64,000 nt of DNA, taken from the NCBI RefSeq assembly GCF_058153355.1, contig NZ_CM177019.1; one strand, given 5' to 3'. Position 1 is the stretch's first letter; each line of letters starts with the position of its first letter. The notes beneath the pieces were generated by a model that was not told the DNA's origin, ran no database searches, and saw only the letters and a program-made list of their open reading frames with translations. Below are positions 3,010-32,838 of the stretch, piece by piece. The position numbers were made by a program, and so were the translations under genes.

Positions 3010-3867
3010 ATGATTTATCCTGATGAAGCAATGCTTTACGCACCGGTTGAATGGCACGACTGCTCCGAAGGTTTCGAGGACATTCGTTATGAAAAATCCA
3101 CCGACGGTATCGCAAAAATCACCATTAATCGTCCGCAGGTGCGCAATGCCTTCCGTCCACTGACGGTCAAAGAGATGATCCAGGCACTGGCAGATGCGCG
3201 TTATGACGACAACATCGGCGTGATCATTCTGACTGGTGCAGGCGATAAAGCGTTCTGCTCTGGTGGCGACCAGAAAGTGCGTGGCGATTACGGCGGCTAT
3301 AAAGATGATTCCGGCGTACATCATCTGAATGTGCTGGACTTCCAGCGTCAGATCCGTACCTGTCCGAAACCGGTTGTCGCGATGGTAGCAGGTTACTCCA
3401 TCGGCGGCGGTCACGTTCTGCACATGATGTGCGACCTGACCATCGCGGCGGAAAACGCCATCTTCGGTCAGACTGGTCCGAAAGTCGGTTCCTTCGATGG
3501 CGGCTGGGGCGCTTCCTATATGGCGCGCATTGTTGGGCAGAAAAAAGCGCGTGAAATCTGGTTCCTGTGCCGTCAGTACGACGCGAAACAAGCGCTGGAT
3601 ATGGGCCTTGTGAACACCGTTGTGCCGCTGGCAGATCTGGAAAAAGAAACCGTGCGTTGGTGCCGCGAAATGCTGCAAAACAGCCCGATGGCGCTGCGTT
3701 GCCTGAAAGCTGCGCTGAACGCTGACTGTGACGGTCAGGCGGGTCTGCAGGAACTGGCGGGCAACGCCACCATGCTGTTCTACATGACGGAAGAAGGTCA
3801 GGAAGGTCGCAACGCCTTCAACCAGAAACGTCAGCCTGACTTCAGCAAATTTAAACGGAATCCGTAA
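3010..3867 (+). CDS. menB: 1,4-dihydroxy-2-naphthoyl-CoA synthase MenB (285 aa)
   Basis: Crotonase-fold sequence; synteny. Confidence 0.93.
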
Positions 3868-4829
3868 TGCGTAGCGCGCAGGTATACCGCTGGCAGATCC
3901 CCATGGACGCGGGGGTGGTTCTGCGCGACAGGCGGTTAAAAACCCGCGACGGGCTGTATGTTTGCCTGCGTGAGGGCGAGCGCGAAGGGTGGGGGGAGAT
4001 CTCCCCACTACCGGGCTTCAGCCAGGAAACATGGGAAGAGGCACAAAGCGTGCTGCTTGCCTGGGTAAATAACTGGCTGGCAGGTGATAGCGAGCTACCG
4101 CAAATGCCTTCCGTCGCCTTTGGCGTAAGCTGTGCATTGGCGGAGCTGGCAGACACGCTCCCGCAGGCAGCCAATTATCGTGCTGCGCCGCTGTGTAATG
4201 GCGATCCTGACGATCTGATCCTCAAACTTGCCGATATGCCAGGTGAGAAAGTGGCGAAGGTCAAAGTGGGATTGTACGAAGCCGTGCGCGACGGCATGGT
4301 GGTCAATCTGTTGCTGGAGGCAATTCCGGATCTGCATTTGCGTCTTGACGCGAATCGCGCCTGGACACCGCTGAAAGGCCAGCAGTTTGCCAAATACGTT
4401 AACCCGGATTATCGCCACCGCATCGCGTTTCTCGAAGAGCCGTGCAAAACCCGCGATGATTCGCGAGCGTTTGCCCGTGAAACCGGCATTGCCATTGCCT
4501 GGGATGAAAGCTTGCGCGAGCCGGATTTTGCCTTTGTCGCTGAACAGGGCGTGCGCGCGGTAGTTATCAAACCCACGCTCACGGGCAGCCTGGAGAAAGT
4601 ACGTGAGCAGGTGCAGGCGGCGCACGCGCTGGGGCTGACGGCGGTGATCAGTTCATCTATTGAGTCGAGCTTAGGCTTAACGCAACTGGCGCGGATTGCT
4701 GCCTGGTTAACACCAGACACCATTCCGGGGCTGGACACGCTGGATCTGATGCAGGCGCAGCAGGTTCGTCGCTGGCCGGGTAGCACGCTGCCTTTTGTCG
4801 ACGTTGATGCACTGGAGCGGTTGTTATGA
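3867..4829 (+). CDS. menC: o-succinylbenzoate synthase MenC (320 aa)
   Basis: Start overlaps menB stop; enolase-superfamily-like sequence; synteny. Confidence 0.9.
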
Positions 4830-6181
4830 TCTTCTCTGACTGGCCGTGGCGTCATTGGCGGCAAGTGCGGGGAGAAGCCATCGCCTTACGTCTCAATGAT
4901 GAGCAACTCAACTGGCGCGAGCTTTGTGTTCATGTCGATGAATTAGCCTCCGGCTTTGCGGCGCAGGGCGTGGTTGAGGGCAGCGGCGTGATGTTGCGGG
5001 CGTGGAATACGCCGCAAACGCTGCTCTCCTGGCTGGCGCTACTGCAATGCGGAGCGCGGGTGCTGCCCGTGAATCCACAGTTGCCGCAACCGTTGCTTGA
5101 GGAATTGTTGCCCAATCTGACGCTGCAATTTGCACTTGTGCCGGAAGGGGAAAACACATTTTCGGCGTTAACGTCGCTGCATATTCAGCAGGTTGAAGGC
5201 GTACATGCCGCTGCGTGGCAGCCGACGCGTCTGTGCTCAATGACGTTGACCTCCGGCTCTACCGGTTTGCCGAAAGCCGCTGTTCATACTTATCAGGCCC
5301 ATCTTGCCAGTGCGCAAGGTGTGTTATCGCTGATACCGTTTGGCGAGCACGATGACTGGTTGCTCTCTTTACCGCTGTTTCACGTCTCCGGTCAGGGAAT
5401 TATGTGGCGCTGGTTATACGCTGGTGCGCGGATGACGGTACGTGATAAACAGCCGTTGGATCACATGCTGGCAGGCTGTACTCACGCATCGCTGGTGCCG
5501 ACGCAGCTCTGGCGTTTGCTGGTTAACCGCAGTTCCGTTTCCCTGAAAGCAGTGTTGCTTGGCGGCGCGGCGATCCCGGTCGAGTTGACGGAACAGGCGC
5601 GCGAGCAGGGTATTCGTTGCTTTTGTGGCTATGGTCTGACCGAGTTTGCTTCCACGGTGTGTGCGAAAGAAGCCGACGGTCTGGCGGACGTCGGTTCGCC
5701 GCTGCCCGGTCGGGAAGTGAAAATCGTTAACGATGAAGTGTGGCTGCGGGCTGCCAGCATGGCAGAAGGTTACTGGCGTAATGGACAACTGGTGCCGCTG
5801 CTCAATGACGAAGGCTGGTACGCTACGCGCGATCGCGGCGAGATGCATAACGGTAAACTGACCATTGTCGGGCGCTTAGATAATCTATTCTTCAGTGGTG
5901 GCGAGGGTATTCAGCCGGAAGAGGTGGAGCGTGTAATTGCTGCACATCCTGCGGTTTTGCAGGTGTTTATCGTCCCCGTTGCGGACAAGGAGTTTGGTCA
6001 TCGACCGGTAGCGGTGGTGGAGTATGACCATCAAAGCGTTGATCTCAGCGAATGGGTGAAAGATAAGCTGGCCCGTTTTCAACAACCGGTGCGCTGGCTG
6101 ACTTTGCCGCCGGAGCTGAAAAACGGCGGTATTAAAATTTCACGTCAGGCGTTAAAAGAATGGGTGCAACGTCAGCAATAA
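4826..6181 (+). CDS. menE: o-succinylbenzoate-CoA ligase MenE (451 aa)
   Basis: 4-bp overlap with menC; adenylate-forming enzyme motif TSGSTGLPK; synteny. Confidence 0.9.
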
Positions 6182-6940: not shown

Positions 6941-7275
6941 TACACCGTACTCCCGAGGATCACAATGCCGCCAATAATGAACGCTACTCCACACCAGTGA
7001 CGCAGCGATACTGGCTCATGCCACAGTTTAACCGCAGCCAGCGTCACCCAGACAAAATTCAGACTCAACATCGGGTAGGCAATGCCCACTGGCACGTTTT
7101 GCAAGACCAGCAGCCAGAGCACCATCGCAAGGCCAAGACAAGCCAGCGCCAGTCCCAGCCACAGCACGATATGTTTGCGCCGTTTGTTTATCGCCACAAA
7201 GCAGGTTGCTTGTTTCTGACACAACTGCCCGGCAACGCTAAGCAAGCTGGCAAAGACTAATGTTAGCCAGATCAT
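6940..7275 (-). CDS. arnE: flippase subunit ArnE (111 aa)
   Basis: Small hydrophobic protein; operon position. Confidence 0.8.
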
Positions 7276-8924
7276 TTGGGCCGATACTGAATCAGCACCA
7301 GACGCTCCTGACGATCGATGGCATCTGCGGGCGGAATGGCGAGACTGTTGATATCTTCATCGCGGTCAACCGAAAGCACGAGTGTAATAACCCCCTCCTG
7401 ACGATGTTGATTAAGCCAGTTTGCGAACTCATCACCGCTGACAAATCTCCCTTTCGCATCCGGATAATTTAGGCCGTATTTCAATTCCCCTGTCTGGCGA
7501 TACATGATGATGTCATCACGTCTCAGGCTCCATGCCAGACCAGCAGCAACGCCGACGCTATCGGTAAGAATATAGCGGCTTGGCTGCAGTGATTCTTGTG
7601 TCGTCTCGACAAAAAATTGCGGATGTTTTCCTTCCATGACTCTGTCAGGAATTGAAAATCCTACCAGCAACGCCAGCCCAAGCGGGCAAAGTGCGGCAAA
7701 AGGCCAGTTTTTTTCGACGTTTGTTAAGGTATACCAGCCGAAAAATGCCCATAGCGAAAAAATCGACCATGCACAGAAGACTTTATAGCTCTCGAAGGTT
7801 TGCCACACCGGCGTGCTCATAGGTCCCCAGGGGGAGACCACAAACGTAGCAATAATGCCAGTGACGCCAAAAGCGATGTTAATCCAGCCATTAATCCGCA
7901 ACGCCAGAGGATTATTTTTTGCTGCCAGCAAAGCGTAATGCGCCATCAGCATTGCCAGAGGTGCAAAGCAGGAAAGAATATAGGTGGGTAATTTGCCTTT
8001 GGCGACAGAGAAAAACAGCAGTGGCATTACCGTCCAGCTCAACAAATAGACGGTTGCGGAATGATTGCGGTTTTTCCAGCCAGCATACAGTGCACCGGGG
8101 AGTAATCCTAACCACGGCAGGCTACCGGCAATGATGACCGGCAAGTAGTACCAGAACGGAGCTCTATGCTGAGCATCATCCATTGCAAAGCGTTGAATAT
8201 GCTCAACCCAGAAAAAATAGTGCCAGAAGTCAGGCTCCCGCTGCGCTATCGCCAGTCCCCAGGGGAGAACCGTCAGTACGCAACTGATAACCGCCAGCCA
8301 GCCGTAAATAAAGAGATCTTTCCAGCGTTTTTGCGTTGCAACCCATGGCAGCACGCTTAATACCGGCACGGCAAGGGCGAGAAAACCTTTGGTCATCACC
8401 CCCATGCCGCAGGTGATTCCCAGCAGTAAAAATCCCGCGCTTTTGCCTTTCCACGTTTGTGCCTGCATTGCCAGCCAGAAGCTGCACATTCCCGCCACCA
8501 GCCAGAATGCAATAAACGGATCGAGCACGGCATAAGTGCCAATGGCATAGACAATAAACAGTGAGAGATAAATCACTGCGGCGAGTAGAGCCAGACGTTT
8601 ATCGCGCCATAAGCGCAGAGTAAACCAGGTCACCAGCGCGGCAGTTAACAGGGTCGCAAAGATAACGCCTGCCCGCACACCAAAGTTATTTGCGCCAAAT
8701 AGCCATTGCCCAATACTGTTAATCCAGTATCCGGCAATGGGTTTTTCGAAATAACGTAGCCCTAACATATGGGGCACAATCCAGTCGCCGGATGCCAGCA
8801 TTTCCCGACTGATTTCCGCATAACGCGTTTCATCTGGTTGCCAGAGCAGACGCGTGCTGATCGGTAACAGGTAATAGCAGGCAATAAACGCGAAGAGGCC
8901 GATAAGGTAACGTACCGATTTCAT
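7272..8924 (-). CDS. arnT: 4-amino-4-deoxy-L-arabinose transferase ArnT (550 aa)
   Basis: Track ORF 7272..8951 trimmed to [11 protein letters not shown]...; polytopic membrane protein; synteny. Confidence 0.85.
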
Positions 8925-27263: not shown

Positions 27264-28622
27264 ATGTTGAGTATTTTTAAACCGGCGCCACACAAAGCGC
27301 GCTTACCTGCCGCGGAGATCGATCCGACTTATCGTCGATTGCGCTGGCAAATTTTCCTGGGGATATTCTTTGGCTATGCTGCTTACTATTTGGTTCGTAA
27401 GAACTTTGCGCTCGCTATGCCTTACCTGGTGGAGCAGGGATTCTCACGCGGTGATTTAGGTTTCGCGCTTTCTGGGATCTCGATCGCCTATGGATTTTCG
27501 AAATTCATCATGGGTTCGGTGTCGGATCGCTCGAATCCGCGCGTTTTCCTCCCTGCAGGTTTGATTCTGGCGGCGGCAGTGATGCTGTTTATGGGCTTTG
27601 TGCCATGGGCGACATCGAGCATTGCGGTAATGTTTGTACTGTTGTTCCTCTGCGGCTGGTTCCAGGGGATGGGGTGGCCGCCGTGTGGTCGTACTATGGT
27701 GCACTGGTGGTCGCAGAAAGAACGTGGCGGCATTGTGTCGGTGTGGAACTGTGCGCACAACGTCGGTGGTGGTATTCCGCCGCTGCTGTTCCTGCTGGGG
27801 ATGGCCTGGTTCAATGACTGGCACGCGGCCCTCTATATGCCCGCTTTCTGCGCCATTCTGGTGGCACTATTCGCCTTTGCGATGATGCGCGATACCCCAC
27901 AATCCTGTGGCTTGCCGCCGATCGAAGAGTACAAAAACGATTATCCGGACGACTATAACGAAAAAGCGGAGCAGGAGCTGACCGCGAAGCAAATTTTCAT
28001 GCAGTACGTGCTGCCGAACAAACTGCTGTGGTACATCGCCATCGCCAACGTGTTCGTTTATCTGCTGCGTTACGGCATCCTCGACTGGTCACCGACCTAC
28101 CTGAAAGAAGTTAAGCATTTCGCGCTGGATAAATCCTCCTGGGCCTACTTCTTCTATGAGTATGCGGGCATTCCGGGCACCCTGTTGTGTGGCTGGATGT
28201 CGGACAAAGTCTTCCGTGGTAACCGTGGGGCAACCGGCGTCTTCTTTATGACACTGGTGACCATCGCAACTATCGTTTACTGGATGAACCCGGCAGGCAA
28301 CCCAACCGTAGATATGATTTGTATGATTGTTATCGGCTTCCTGATCTACGGTCCTGTGATGTTGATTGGTCTGCACGCGCTGGAACTGGCACCGAAAAAA
28401 GCGGCAGGTACGGCAGCGGGCTTTACCGGTCTGTTTGGTTACCTGGGCGGTTCGGTGGCGGCGAGCGCGATTGTTGGTTACACCGTGGACTTCTTCGGCT
28501 GGGATGGCGGCTTTATGGTAATGATTGGCGGCAGCATCCTGGCGGTTATCCTGTTGATAGTTGTGATGATTGGCGAAAAACGTCGCCATCAGGAATTACT
28601 GCAAAAACGCAATGGAGGCTAA
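27264..28622 (+). CDS. glpT: glycerol-3-phosphate transporter GlpT (452 aa)
   Basis: MFS organophosphate:Pi antiporter sequence; synteny. Confidence 0.95.
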
Positions 28623-28626
28623 TGGC

Positions 28627-29703
28627 ATGAAATTGACGCTGAAAAACCTTAGCATGGCGATCATGATGAGTGGAATGATCATGGGAAGCAGTGCAATGGC
28701 GGCGGATAGCAACGAAAAAATAGTCATCGCCCATCGCGGTGCCAGTGGATATTTACCGGAGCATACGCTGCCAGCAAAAGCGATGGCGTATGCGCAGGGG
28801 GCAGATTATCTTGAACAGGATTTGGTGATGACGAAGGATGATCATCTGGTCGTTCTGCATGACCATTATCTCGATCGTGTTACTGATGTCGCCGATCGTT
28901 TCCCGGACAGGGCGCGTAAAGATGGCCGTTACTACGCGATAGATTTTACGCTGGATGAAATTAAGTCGCTGAAATTTACCGAAGGTTTCGATATTGAAAA
29001 CGGTAAAAAAGTGCAGACTTATCCGGGGCGTTTCCCGATGGGTAAGTCTGACTTCCGGGTGCACACCTTTGAAGAAGAGATTGAATTTGTTCAGGGGTTA
29101 AATCACTCCACTGGGAAAAATATTGGTATCTATCCAGAAATTAAAGCGCCGTGGTTCCACCATCAGGAAGGGAAGGATATTGCGGCAAAAACGCTGGAAG
29201 TGCTGAAGAAATATGGTTACCTCGGTAAGGACGACAAAGTTTATTTGCAATGTTTTGATGCTGATGAGCTGAAACGCATTAAAAATGAGCTGGAACCGAA
29301 AATGGGCATGGACCTCAATCTTGTACAGCTGATTGCCTATACCGACTGGAATGAAACGCAGCAGAAACAGCCGGACGGAAGCTGGGTTAATTACAGCTAT
29401 GACTGGATGTTCAAGCCGGGCGCCATGAAACAGGTAGCGGAATATGCTGATGGCATTGGTCCGGATTACCATATGGTGATTGAGGAGACATCGCAGCCGG
29501 GTAATATCAAGCTTACCGGAATGGTAAAAGATGCACAGCAGAATAAGCTGGTGGTGCATCCTTATACCGTGCGGGCCGACAAGCTGCCGGAATATGCCAC
29601 CGATGTGAATCAGTTGTATGATGCTCTGTATAACAAAGCGGGTGTAAATGGGCTGTTTACTGATTTCCCTGATAAGGCAGTAAAATTCCTTAATAAAGAG
29701 TAA
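28627..29703 (+). CDS. glpQ: periplasmic glycerophosphodiester phosphodiesterase GlpQ (358 aa)
   Basis: Track ORF 28570..29703 trimmed to ATG with GGAGG RBS; signal peptide then HRGASGYLPEHT. Confidence 0.9.
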   Translation: MKLTLKNLSMAIMMSGMIMGSSAMAADSNEKIVIAHRGASGYLPEHTLPAKAMAYAQGADYLEQDLVMTKDDHLVVLHDHYLDRVTDVADRFPDRARKDGRYYAIDFTLDEIKSLKFTEGFDIENGKKVQTYPGRFPMGKSDFRVHTFEEEIEFVQGLNHSTGKNIGIYPEIKAPWFHHQEGKDIAAKTLEVLKKYGYLGKDDKVYLQCFDADELKRIKNELEPKMGMDLNLVQLIAYTDWNETQQKQPDGSWVNYSYDWMFKPGAMKQVAEYADGIGPDYHMVIEETSQPGNIKLTGMVKDAQQNKLVVHPYTVRADKLPEYATDVNQLYDALYNKAGVNGLFTDFPDKAVKFLNKE

Positions 29704-29713
29704 TGCTACTGCA

Positions 29714-29735
29714 GGATGGCGTTCATGCGCCATCC
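29714..29735 (+). terminator. hairpin downstream of glpQ
   Basis: Perfect 8-bp stem GGATGGCG / CGCCATCC with 6-nt loop, 10 bp after the glpQ stop; no strong T-run. Confidence 0.4.
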
Positions 29736-29922
29736 TCTGCTAAAGCGAAATAATGCTACTACCGGTTATTCTTTTCATTAACGGGTGCATCCTGTAAAAA
29801 GATGCCAACATAATTTTCGTAAAACTCATTCGTTAAAAAAGCTAACACTGGGCATTGTTATTCTTTAAACAGTATGAATAGGTCTCAATAATAAATTGTA
29901 ATGCAGTTTATACTGTAAAGTA

Positions 29923-30993
29923 TTATTCGAATTTCGGAAAGGTAAAGAAAATATTAATGTATCTTATTAATTTATCATATTGTTCTTGGGTGAATGCTGT
30001 TTGCACACCTTCAGGGCAATATTTACCAGTAATAACCAGTTGCCCATTGCTGTGTTGTACCATTAAACCTTCTTTTTCCTTTGGATCTACAAACTTAGAA
30101 TTATCAAATGTGAAGATATTTTTTTCCTGTTTTGAGTAAGCAAAGAAATCTCGTGTATAGCTGAAACTATCATTTATTAATGGTGCTAACTTTTTGTCGG
30201 CGATATCGATAAGCTCACCACTTAATTTATTGATGTATTTCATTTGCTTCAATTTTTTCTGCGCTTGCACAATTTGCTTGTAGGTGTTTTCAATTTTTTT
30301 AGAAGAATTCTTAAATACATCATAGCGTTCCTCGGAGGATGTGTATTTGTACCATTCTGTATTTTTCTCAGAATGCAGTAGCAGATCTGTATATTCTTTT
30401 TGCTTGCTGTAAAGTTGAGTTCTTATATTTAACTCGTGGATAAATTTATAAATTTTGTCAGAGTTGGTTATTTTTGGTGTGTCTTTGTCTGTCAATGTTT
30501 GGATCTTGTTATTGATATTTTCTTTTGCAACATGCTCATTGATGATGTTAATTGCAGTTTCATATTCATTTAAATTTATTGTTCTTTCTGAAAGAAACCC
30601 TTCTTTGCTTTCGATACTCAAAACACCTTCGTTGTTTTCACCTCGGGTAAAGGTAAGGGTATAGGGTTCATAATCTTCTGCAAATTCATTTTTATACGTT
30701 ATGACATGCTCGACAAAATGTCTTATTGGTACGAAACCATAACTGTGAACGTCAATTTTTTGTGTTTTGATACTATCAATTTCATCTGAGGCTTTCGTGA
30801 AAAAAGCCAATAAATTAGCTATGTTGTCTGCTGAGGTTGATAACCCGAATCTACTTTGAGATATTTTTAGAAACTCATTGCAAAAAATCTCAAGTTTCGC
30901 GGTTTGTTGTGATTCTTTGTAAATTTCTGCTGTTTGCAATTTATTATTTTGTAAAATATTACAGCGAGATAATTGAATAGATGTATTTGGCAT
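29923..30993 (-). CDS. hypothetical protein (356 aa), AT-rich orphan gene in glpQ-inaA islet
   Basis: Long ORF in strongly AT-rich DNA; ATG with AAGGA RBS (MPNTSIQLSR...); Lys/Asn/Glu/Tyr-rich, no TM segments, no motif recognised. Confidence 0.6.
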   Translation of the reverse strand: MPNTSIQLSRCNILQNNKLQTAEIYKESQQTAKLEIFCNEFLKISQSRFGLSTSADNIANLLAFFTKASDEIDSIKTQKIDVHSYGFVPIRHFVEHVITYKNEFAEDYEPYTLTFTRGENNEGVLSIESKEGFLSERTINLNEYETAINIINEHVAKENINNKIQTLTDKDTPKITNSDKIYKFIHELNIRTQLYSKQKEYTDLLLHSEKNTEWYKYTSSEERYDVFKNSSKKIENTYKQIVQAQKKLKQMKYINKLSGELIDIADKKLAPLINDSFSYTRDFFAYSKQEKNIFTFDNSKFVDPKEKEGLMVQHSNGQLVITGKYCPEGVQTAFTQEQYDKLIRYINIFFTFPKFE

Positions 30994-31459
30994 AAATGAT
31001 TCCTTGTATTGTGAGTTAACAAGATACAATTTAATCTTTGCAGAATATATTCACTATCAAATTTAGCTCATTTTATTACGAAGACCTTTACGCATGTTAG
31101 AAAGTATCATTATTGTTAATAAATACGGTAATAAGTAACAAACAGATATTGATAACTTCCCTGACTAGTTATTAGGTATCCCACTTGAAGATTGAGAATG
31201 GCTCCAGAGTAAACTGTGTACTGTTCGCCGGAGTGTCATTACTCTCAACAATCGGTTTTGACAGTGAGTCGGGCGCTTCATACCGGTTTCTACCTGGAGT
31301 CATTGTCACTTCTCCCAACTGAATAAATATATATCGCCAATTCACAAAGTGGGCCAAAATCAGGTGAAAACGAATTATTACGCCTGGTAAAGACTATAGT
31401 ACAACTAAGTGTGGCGAATCAGGCAGTCTTGCATTTGTCATCAATCTCATGTCTTACAT

Positions 31460-31700
31460 CAAATTTTTCCACTCACCACGAGTTGTTCCGTACACGTTTG
31501 TAGTACAAACAGTGGACTGCCTTCTACCGGCTTTTCTTTAGCCAGCAACGAAATCTGTCGATAGAAGGTTGGTTCGAGAGGAACGGAACACAATTCACCT
31601 GCAATGGTTTTCAGCGTTAACTCTGGTAATAAGGCGATGCCTAATCCCTGTCGAATAAAACTGATCGCTGTATCCGGGTGATTAAATTCATATTTTATTT
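31460..31700 (-). pseudogene. LysR-family regulator C-terminal remnant (yfaH-like)
   Basis: Minus-strand translation gives ...GIALLPELTLKTIAGELCSVPLEPTFYRQISLLAKEKPVEGSPLFVLQ... with no N-terminal HTH domain or start codon. Confidence 0.45.
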
Positions 31701-31880
31701 GCTGGGTGCACTATTAGTGGTAGTGGCTGGTGGAGTCTATGCGCTGCAAATGAAGGGCAAAAGCGGTGTCGCGCTAGTAGTGGCAAAAGAAATTCATTAA
31801 TACGACACGTTTCATTAAGATTTTTCGCAGGTAACCACCTATAGTCATTGTCGTTAATAAAAAATGACAGGCGATAGGGT

Positions 31881-32531
31881 ATGGCAGTTTCAGCAAAGTA
31901 CGATGAATTTAATCACTGGTGGGCAACAGAGGGCGACTGGGTTGAAGAGCCTAACTATCGCCGTAATGGGATGAGCGGGGTGCAATGCGTCGAGCGCAAT
32001 GGCAAAAAGCTGTATGTGAAGCGCATGACGCATCATCTGTTTCATTCCGTACGTTATCCGTTCGGTCGACCGACGATTGTCCGTGAGGTTGCGGTAATTA
32101 AAGAACTGGAACGGGCTGGTGTCATTGTGCCGAAAATCGTTTTTGGTGAAGCGGTGAAAATTGAGGGTGAATGGCGCGCGTTGCTGGTGACGGAAGATAT
32201 GGCGGGGTTCATAAGTATTGCTGACTGGTATGCCCAGCATGCAGTAACACCTTATTCTGACGATGTTCGGCAAGCCATGTTGAAAGCTGTGGCGATGGCG
32301 TTTAAGAAAATGCATAGCGTTAATCGTCAGCATGGCTGTTGTTACGTTCGCCACATCTATGTGAAAACAGAAGGTATGGTAGAAGCTGGTTTTCTTGATC
32401 TGGAGAAAAGTCGTCGCCGCTTACGTCGGCATAAAGCGATTAATCATGATTTCCGCCAGCTGGAAAAATATCTGGAGCCGATCCCTAAAGCGGACTGGGA
32501 GCAGGTTAAAGCGTATTACTACGCCATGTAA
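31881..32531 (+). CDS. inaA: lipopolysaccharide-kinase-family protein InaA (216 aa)
   Basis: Sequence recognised; synteny next to yfaE. Confidence 0.8.
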   Translation: MAVSAKYDEFNHWWATEGDWVEEPNYRRNGMSGVQCVERNGKKLYVKRMTHHLFHSVRYPFGRPTIVREVAVIKELERAGVIVPKIVFGEAVKIEGEWRALLVTEDMAGFISIADWYAQHAVTPYSDDVRQAMLKAVAMAFKKMHSVNRQHGCCYVRHIYVKTEGMVEAGFLDLEKSRRRLRRHKAINHDFRQLEKYLEPIPKADWEQVKAYYYAM

Positions 32532-32583
32532 TCACGTAGGCCAGATAAGACGCGTAAGCGTCGCATCTGGCACAAGTACCCGA

Positions 32584-32838
32584 TCACATCTCGATTTCAA
32601 TATCGCCTTTTGCCCGGCAACAACAGGGCAAAATTTCCCCCGGCTGAATAAAGGCTAACGGTTCGGCAATCCAGTCCACCTGGCCTGCAACAAGGCGTGT
32701 GCGACAAGAACCGCAGTAACCTTCGCGGCACTGGTACTCAACCGCCACATTGTGGGATTCCAGCGCCGCCAGAAGGGAAGGGTGTTCATCCTGGCACAGC
32801 AGTTGTGTGCCAGTGATGCGCAGGGTAACGCGAGCCAT
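32584..32838 (-). CDS. yfaE: 2Fe-2S ferredoxin YfaE (84 aa)
   Basis: CxxxxCxxC...C cluster ligands; immediately downstream of nrdB. Confidence 0.85.
   Translation of the reverse strand: MARVTLRITGTQLLCQDEHPSLLAALESHNVAVEYQCREGYCGSCRTRLVAGQVDWIAEPLAFIQPGEILPCCCRAKGDIEIEM

Follow-up and report, generated by a model that had tools for sequence, protein, structure and literature searches.

A 40-codon reading frame in the glpQ-inaA interval of Escherichia coli is almost certainly the leftover of a deletion within a LysR-MFS gene pair

Introduction

Does a short, hydrophobic reading frame that lies beside a regulator remnant encode a small membrane protein, or is it what remains of a larger gene? 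Validated small inner-membrane proteins of E. coli, which have fewer than 50 amino acids and a single transmembrane helix, were found by ribosome profiling and epitope tagging. In size, and in having one hydrophobic helix and a charged tail, the predicted product of an open reading frame (ORF) between glpQ and inaA resembles them. This ORF lies in a stretch of 64,000 nucleotides (NCBI RefSeq assembly GCF_058153355.1, contig NZ_CM177019.1), which we analysed as a whole and hereafter call the window. An earlier note on this DNA, made from its letters alone, had offered two readings of the ORF, a gene for a small membrane protein or the remnant of a decayed gene, and had associated it with a fragment of a LysR-family gene on the opposite strand.

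Comparison with related genomes leads us to an answer that we hold to be almost certain: the ORF is a non-functional leftover, in which the 3' end of an MFS transporter gene has been joined to antisense LysR sequence by a deletion of 1,879 bp. Below, we describe the parentage of the ORF, the deletion junction and its distribution among E. coli genomes, and we weigh three other readings of the same sequence. The features that are relevant to this argument are collected in Table 1.

Table 1. Features of the glpQ-inaA interval and of the intact homologous locus. Positions are those of the window, except where L004 (O157:H7 strain F6667) is named.
Feature	Position	Strand	Basis or remark
glpQ	28570-29703	+	
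Hypothetical gene, 356 aa (368 aa from upstream TTG)	29923-30993 (to 31029 for 368 aa)	-	About 30% GC (profile over 29700-31200); between glpQ and the LysR remnant
LysR-family regulator C-terminal remnant (yfaH), 80 aa, residues 213-292 of a 292-aa protein	31459-31701	-	Translation, PF03466, PGAP, K-12 record
Chimeric 40-codon ORF	31678-31800	+	GTG start; ORF list, translation, comparison with the O157:H7 MFS protein
Deletion junction, single remaining copy of the 8-bp microhomology	31694-31701		TTTATCTG in intact alleles, TTTATTTG here
MFS transporter gene 3' remnant (last transmembrane helix, C-terminal tail, stop)	31702-31800	+	blastn to L004 and protein identity
inaA (lipopolysaccharide kinase InaA), intact	31881-32531	+	80 bp 3' of the remnant; ORF list, homologous-locus annotation
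yfaE	32584-32838	-	
nrdB	from 32838	-	
Intact LysR regulator, 292 aa, WP_000176738.1	L004 5080-5958	-	HTH_1 and LysR_substrate (Pfam)
Intact MFS transporter, 396 aa, WP_000660231.1	L004 6110-7300	+	MFS_1, 3e-60 (Pfam)

The reading frame and its product

The 40-codon ORF translates as (V/M)IKFIFYLLGALLVVVAGGVYALQMKGKSGVALVVAKEIH and is terminated by TAA at 31798-31800, and the ORF list and translation thus agree with the earlier note on where the frame ends and on its possible GTG start. The nearest upstream in-frame stop is the TAA at 31642-31644. Because the frame is open back to that codon, position 31645, from which the earlier note had counted, is simply the first in-frame codon past the stop. 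Residues 5-23 of the product form a single strongly hydrophobic segment (mean Kyte-Doolittle value 2.35) that precedes a Lys-rich tail, which is the arrangement of one helix and a basic tail that had been noted before. This segment is the only hydropathy peak of the 40-aa product, and the product has no Pfam match.

The length of the ORF is uninformative, given that the ORF list contains approximately 33 entries of 40 aa or more that overlap the 4.5 kb around it. In GenBank, the exact 40-aa product is present on two contigs only, where it is named 'transporter, major facilitator family domain protein' (EGE64166.1) and hypothetical protein (KDA57291.1).

The placement of the ORF in the glpQ-inaA interval is likewise correct (Table 1), as is the existence of an overlap with the LysR fragment on the opposite strand. 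The extent of this overlap is limited, however, in that the fragment covers only 24 nucleotides of the ORF proper (31678-31701) and the remaining 99 of 123 nucleotides lie outside it. Codons 1-6 (V-I-K-F-I-F) consist of LysR coding sequence read on the opposite strand, and codons 7-40, together with the stop codon, are derived from the MFS gene.

The parent is a neighbouring transporter gene

Residues 7-40 of the ORF product are identical at 34 of 34 positions to residues 363-396 of the MFS transporter WP_000660231.1 in a direct protein comparison. The DNA of the remnant is collinear with positions 7194-7300 of L004, the intact O157:H7 locus, and the collinearity runs on into inaA; when the junction repeat is counted in, the remnant spans residues 363-396 of the 396 in the full protein. 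Residues 361-379 form the final hydropathy peak of the intact transporter. The helix and basic tail of the ORF are the last (twelfth) transmembrane helix and the cytoplasmic tail of this 12-helix protein, and the hydrophobicity of the 40-aa product stems from that ancestry and is no argument for a small-protein gene. The earlier note had tied the ORF to the LysR remnant, but its actual parent is the neighbouring, divergently transcribed transporter gene. We found no evidence that contradicts MFS ancestry of the ORF.

A functional member of the MFS_1 family (PF07690) requires the full 12-helix domain. The intact O157 protein matches this model at 3.2e-60, and the matching stretch, residues 14-346, falls entirely within the part that is deleted in the window. 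Since the ORF retains only one of the 12 helices and has no Pfam match, it is not a functional member of the family. It is a pseudogene fragment of one specific MFS gene, since it is collinear with, and identical to, the C-terminal end of the intact orthologue that occupies this locus.

The pseudogene status of the plus-strand fragment was already known, in that it is flagged by PGAP and lies at the known yfaH locus. PGAP annotates the stretch equivalent to window positions 31690-31800 as 'hypothetical protein, incomplete, missing N-terminus', and both the LysR piece and the MFS piece carry its label of incomplete pseudogene in all homologous genomes that we inspected.

The LysR remnant and the flanking genes

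The minus-strand fragment, whose translation ends in LVVSGKI and a stop, matches PF03466 (LysR_substrate) with an E-value of 1.5e-7 over profile positions 131-189 of 209, and a Pfam search found no HTH_1 domain in it. Its description as a LysR C-terminal fragment that lacks the HTH domain is therefore sound. A LysR-type regulator carries both HTH_1 and LysR_substrate, as the intact O157 protein does, and the fragment lacks this combination. Residues 226-292 of the intact O157 LysR protein match the NCBIfam model NF007272 (a 68-aa 'hypothetical protein' model) with an E-value of 4e-43. In the curated K-12 record, the matching position is taken by the pseudogene yfaH (b2238), and nothing else is listed from there to inaA. 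Given the NF007272 match and the position of yfaH in that record, we equate the minus-strand remnant with yfaH. PGAP annotates this piece as a pseudogene 'missing N-terminus'.

The literature on yfaH that we found consists of incidental mentions, either as a site that was replaced by a resistance cassette to serve as a linked transduction marker (PMC2714960), and was thus dispensable in practice, or as an entry in expression lists (PMC9600279, PMC9501238).

The K-12 yfaH locus has the same junction as the window and the same two back-to-back fragments between glpQ and inaA. The two loci are not identical, however. Approximately 31 of 431 aligned positions differ between the window and the K-12 allele around the junction, and there the window resembles the intact O157-type alleles. 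The window also keeps the AT-rich gene for a 356-aa protein. K-12 lacks this gene, O157:H7 has it in intact form, and in strain MFDS1022581 it carries a frameshift. This protein has no match in Pfam, NCBIfam, PHROGs or PADLOC, and its gene was probably acquired horizontally. On the other side of the locus, a 39-bp stretch just 3' of inaA (32536-32574) matches two inverted copies in L004 (9523-9561 and 9604-9642) at 90% identity, and resembles a REP-type intergenic repeat.

A deletion between short direct repeats

When the window was compared with L004 by blastn, positions 29500-31706 aligned to 3119-5326 and positions 31694-32600 aligned to 7194-8101. Because these two segments map to separated stretches of L004, about 1.87 kb of the O157 locus is missing from the window. 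The segments share 13 bp (window 31694-31706), and within L004 the sequence TTTATCTG occurs at both 5315-5322 and 7194-7201, which gives the deletion its exact size of 1,879 bp. The single copy left at the junction in the window reads TTTATTTG, which differs from TTTATCTG by a later C>T change.

Lost with the deleted segment are LysR codons 1-212 (the 5' three-quarters of the gene), the 151-bp divergent intergenic region with its promoter sequences, and MFS codons 1-362. Thus, the window retains 80 of 292 LysR codons and 34 of 396 MFS codons, and the promoter region is gone. Unlike the O157:H7 pair, which is the parent of both fragments (the plus-strand piece matches MFS residues 363-396 exactly and the minus-strand piece matches LysR residues 213-292) and which is syntenic with the window from glpQ to yfaE and nrdB, neither Pfam domain can function in the window.

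Of the four intact alleles that we sampled, three carry TTTATCTG at each endpoint of the deletion, and in the fourth (M121) the left endpoint is divergent. All ten deletion alleles that we aligned have an identical junction. A repeat at both endpoints of the undeleted locus, with one copy at the junction of the deleted locus, is the pattern that identifies a deletion between short direct repeats, or microhomology deletion.

These observations show the following series of events. The ancestral E. coli locus had the order glpQ, LysR regulator (minus strand), MFS transporter (plus strand) and inaA. The DNA between the 8-bp direct repeats, one of which lies within each gene, was then deleted, probably by replication slippage or some other form of microhomology-mediated joining. 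The surviving 3' ends of the LysR and MFS genes were thereby joined back to back, which is why the MFS frame continues from antisense LysR sequence. In the lineage of the window, this antisense sequence happens to contain a GTG that is in frame and lies six codons ahead of the junction, and the 40-codon ORF is the result. Both fragments would now be evolving in a manner that is free of coding constraint.

The intact pair and its losses in the population

The intact locus of L004 has the order glpQ, the 356-aa hypothetical gene (minus strand), LysR, MFS and inaA. A LysR regulator next to a divergently transcribed transporter is a classic divergent regulator-target pair. The same divergent LysR-MFS pair is located between glpQ and yfaE-nrdB in Salmonella enterica serovar Djakarta (L018) and Citrobacter werkmanii (L020), whose MFS proteins are 86-87% identical to that of E. 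coli. Since Salmonella and Citrobacter carry the pair at this position, we consider it ancestral at the locus and the E. coli variants to be losses. In both of these genomes (L018 and L020, 4961-7450), yfaE lies directly 3' of the MFS gene with no inaA between them, and thus the placement of inaA differs from that in E. coli.

A megablast search with window positions 31380-31900 against 5,426 complete E. coli genomes revealed that 3,102 of them (57%) align across the junction. Of the same 5,426 genomes, 1,217 keep at least 80% of the deleted segment. The remaining genomes lack both LysR and MFS. For example, glpQ lies approximately 200 bp from inaA in strain E2348/69 (L006). Genomes in which glpQ directly adjoins inaA still align to the window from about position 31782 (window about 31782-31880; L006 3897-4100). 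Identity to the window across the junction stretch reaches 99% or more in only 14 genomes.

Independent damage by insertion sequences was also observed at this locus in other strains. An IS1 element truncates LysR and glpQ in ETEC6334 (L003), and another cuts the MFS gene down to its C-terminal 170 aa in GDSC2227PM (L017). In L001 and L012, IS2/IS3 elements are located beside the LysR remnant or glpQ.

Two classes of deletion allele

Over window positions 31440-31880, we compared the window and the deletion alleles L001, L002 and L007-L013 with the intact alleles L004 and L014-L016. Two classes can be distinguished among the deletion alleles, and their TTTATCTG junction is identical: a rare class comprising the window and L001, and a common K-12 class. 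When the O157 allele is deleted in silico, the window class differs from it at only 4 of 256 positions to the left of the junction and 2 of 174 to the right. The corresponding differences between the K-12 class and the window class are 24 of 258 and 7 of 173. In the 100 bp nearest the junction, about ten differences are fixed in the K-12 class and absent from all four sampled intact alleles.

Because the window class is nearer to the intact alleles than to the K-12 class, a simple single origin of the deletion that involves no recombination is disfavoured. From this small sample of alleles, we favour the possibility that the same repeat-mediated deletion recurred independently. Alternatively, both flanks may have been converted right up to the junction.

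The inaA gene of the window (31900-32600) differs by approximately 2-8% per 100 bp from the K-12 and O157 alleles, which differ from each other by only 0-3%, and the sequence just 5' of inaA in the window is approximately 1-2% from that of O157. The locus is a recombination mosaic, as judged from these patterns of divergence.

Is the transporter 3' end kept for the sake of inaA?

Given that the remnant ends only 80 bp 5' of the inaA start codon, one might propose that this stretch is kept as DNA, because the transporter 3' end carries upstream regulatory sequence of inaA, and that this explains where deletions stop. This proposal draws further on genomes of the phylogroup B2 type that lack LysR and MFS, in which homology is regained at about 31782, or 18 bp before the MFS stop, and on the inaA gene having a promoter of its own that is regulated by Mar/Sox (Rosner and Slonczewski 1994, as this work is cited in PMC5257004). 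Because homology to the pair-less genomes resumes at that point, the last six or so MFS codons overlap the conserved region upstream of inaA.

However, only approximately 18 nucleotides of the ORF are common to the B2 configuration, and the other approximately 80 nucleotides of MFS-derived sequence (31702-31781) are dispensable there. Moreover, the location of the 8-bp repeat fully accounts for the position of the junction. A scan for the marbox consensus (AYNGCACNNWNNRYYAAAYN, with at most two mismatches) was at chance level overall, with 17 matches in the window against 17.5 expected, and no match was located 5' of inaA. We therefore regard a regulatory reason for the retention of the transporter 3' end as rather unlikely. 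The comparison with the B2 configuration suggests that only the last 18 or so nucleotides of the ORF overlap the inaA upstream region; the remaining approximately 80 nucleotides of MFS-derived sequence survive simply through the position of the repeat.

Is the reading frame a gene?

A second proposal takes up the possibility that the ORF encodes a lineage-specific, single-pass inner-membrane peptide of 40 aa that has some activity, and that a gene has been born from the transporter remnant in the rare allele class of the window, which would have acquired or kept an in-frame GTG after the deletion. Several characteristics are in keeping with this idea. The ORF is intact and has a GTG start in both the window and L001, which is its closest relative (99.4% identical). 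The strong transmembrane segment and positively charged tail of the product are shared with many E. coli small membrane proteins, and in two GenBank assemblies gene callers have arrived at precisely this 40-aa product.

These same characteristics must be weighed against the fate of the frame in other alleles, which is the check that the earlier note had itself recommended. Among the ten aligned deletion alleles (the window, L001 and eight of the K-12 type), the start codon of the ORF is GTG in only the first two, whereas CTG takes its place in every one of the eight sampled alleles of the K-12 type, which stand for the majority of the 3,102 deletion-carrying genomes. As a consequence of this difference, the longest canonical ORF in K-12-type alleles has 27 codons and starts within the helix, compared with 40 codons in the window. 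One of the ten alleles, L012 (13E0725), carries a 1-bp deletion that frameshifts the MFS remnant, and in two other sampled deletion alleles the LysR piece is interrupted by a stop codon or frameshift. The substitutions in the MFS remnant are mostly of the amino-acid-changing type (V>I, A>K/T, L>P and V>A), and sister alleles thus display both a frameshift and non-synonymous decay. Furthermore, the GTG-containing sequence GGGTGATT already occurs in undeleted alleles of the O157 type, where it lies antisense to LysR codons, and therefore the GTG is inherited sequence rather than a codon that was selected as a start.

Signals for expression are equally inconspicuous. There is no Shine-Dalgarno sequence 5' of the GTG: the 20 nucleotides upstream pair with the anti-Shine-Dalgarno sequence at -1.1 kcal/mol, which is weaker than 69% of random window positions. 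Leaderless or Shine-Dalgarno-independent initiation is known to exist in E. coli. No sigma-70-like promoter or terminator was found on either strand between 31300 and 31950, although this is a weak negative, since the same scan misses the known, activator-dependent promoter of inaA. Read-through transcription into the ORF is unlikely because both upstream neighbours, the LysR remnant and the gene for the 356-aa protein, are encoded on the minus strand, and hence no co-directional gene upstream could supply transcription.

In sum, unlike the validated small inner-membrane proteins, the ORF has no conserved start, no Shine-Dalgarno sequence, no frame that is conserved as a unit and no curated K-12 entry, and it is demonstrably derived from a larger gene that PGAP calls a pseudogene. 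We infer from these sequence comparisons that the ORF lacks functional translation, and we judge an active 40-aa peptide to be highly improbable. Of the two possibilities put forward in the earlier note, the decayed gene remnant is the one that holds, and the small membrane protein gene is not borne out by start conservation, frame conservation or Shine-Dalgarno pairing.

Lastly, there is next to no chance that the ORF arose fortuitously on the strand antisense to the LysR remnant and lacks a separate ancestry; the GTG and first six codons are indeed antisense to LysR and short ORFs abound in the region, but we reject this reading because most of the ORF lies outside the LysR remnant and its residues 7-40 are the MFS C-terminus.

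Implications

Comparison with O157:H7 alone settles the identity of the ORF as the leftover of a transporter gene, and the ORF itself yields no new biology. It does offer a lesson for annotation, in that intact alleles should be consulted before a hydrophobic short ORF beside a pseudogene is proposed to encode a small membrane protein. If the 40-aa peptide were nevertheless active, the locus would present an observable first step in the birth of a small gene from a pseudogene.

Of broader relevance are the fates of the LysR-MFS pair, which has been lost by several routes within one species: by microhomology deletion in 57% of genomes, by complete absence of the pair, and by IS1 insertion. If the deletion did recur at the same 8-bp repeat, the site would constitute a small natural example of a deletion hotspot, and the LysR-MFS module would be a target of recurrent, and possibly selected, loss in E. 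coli.
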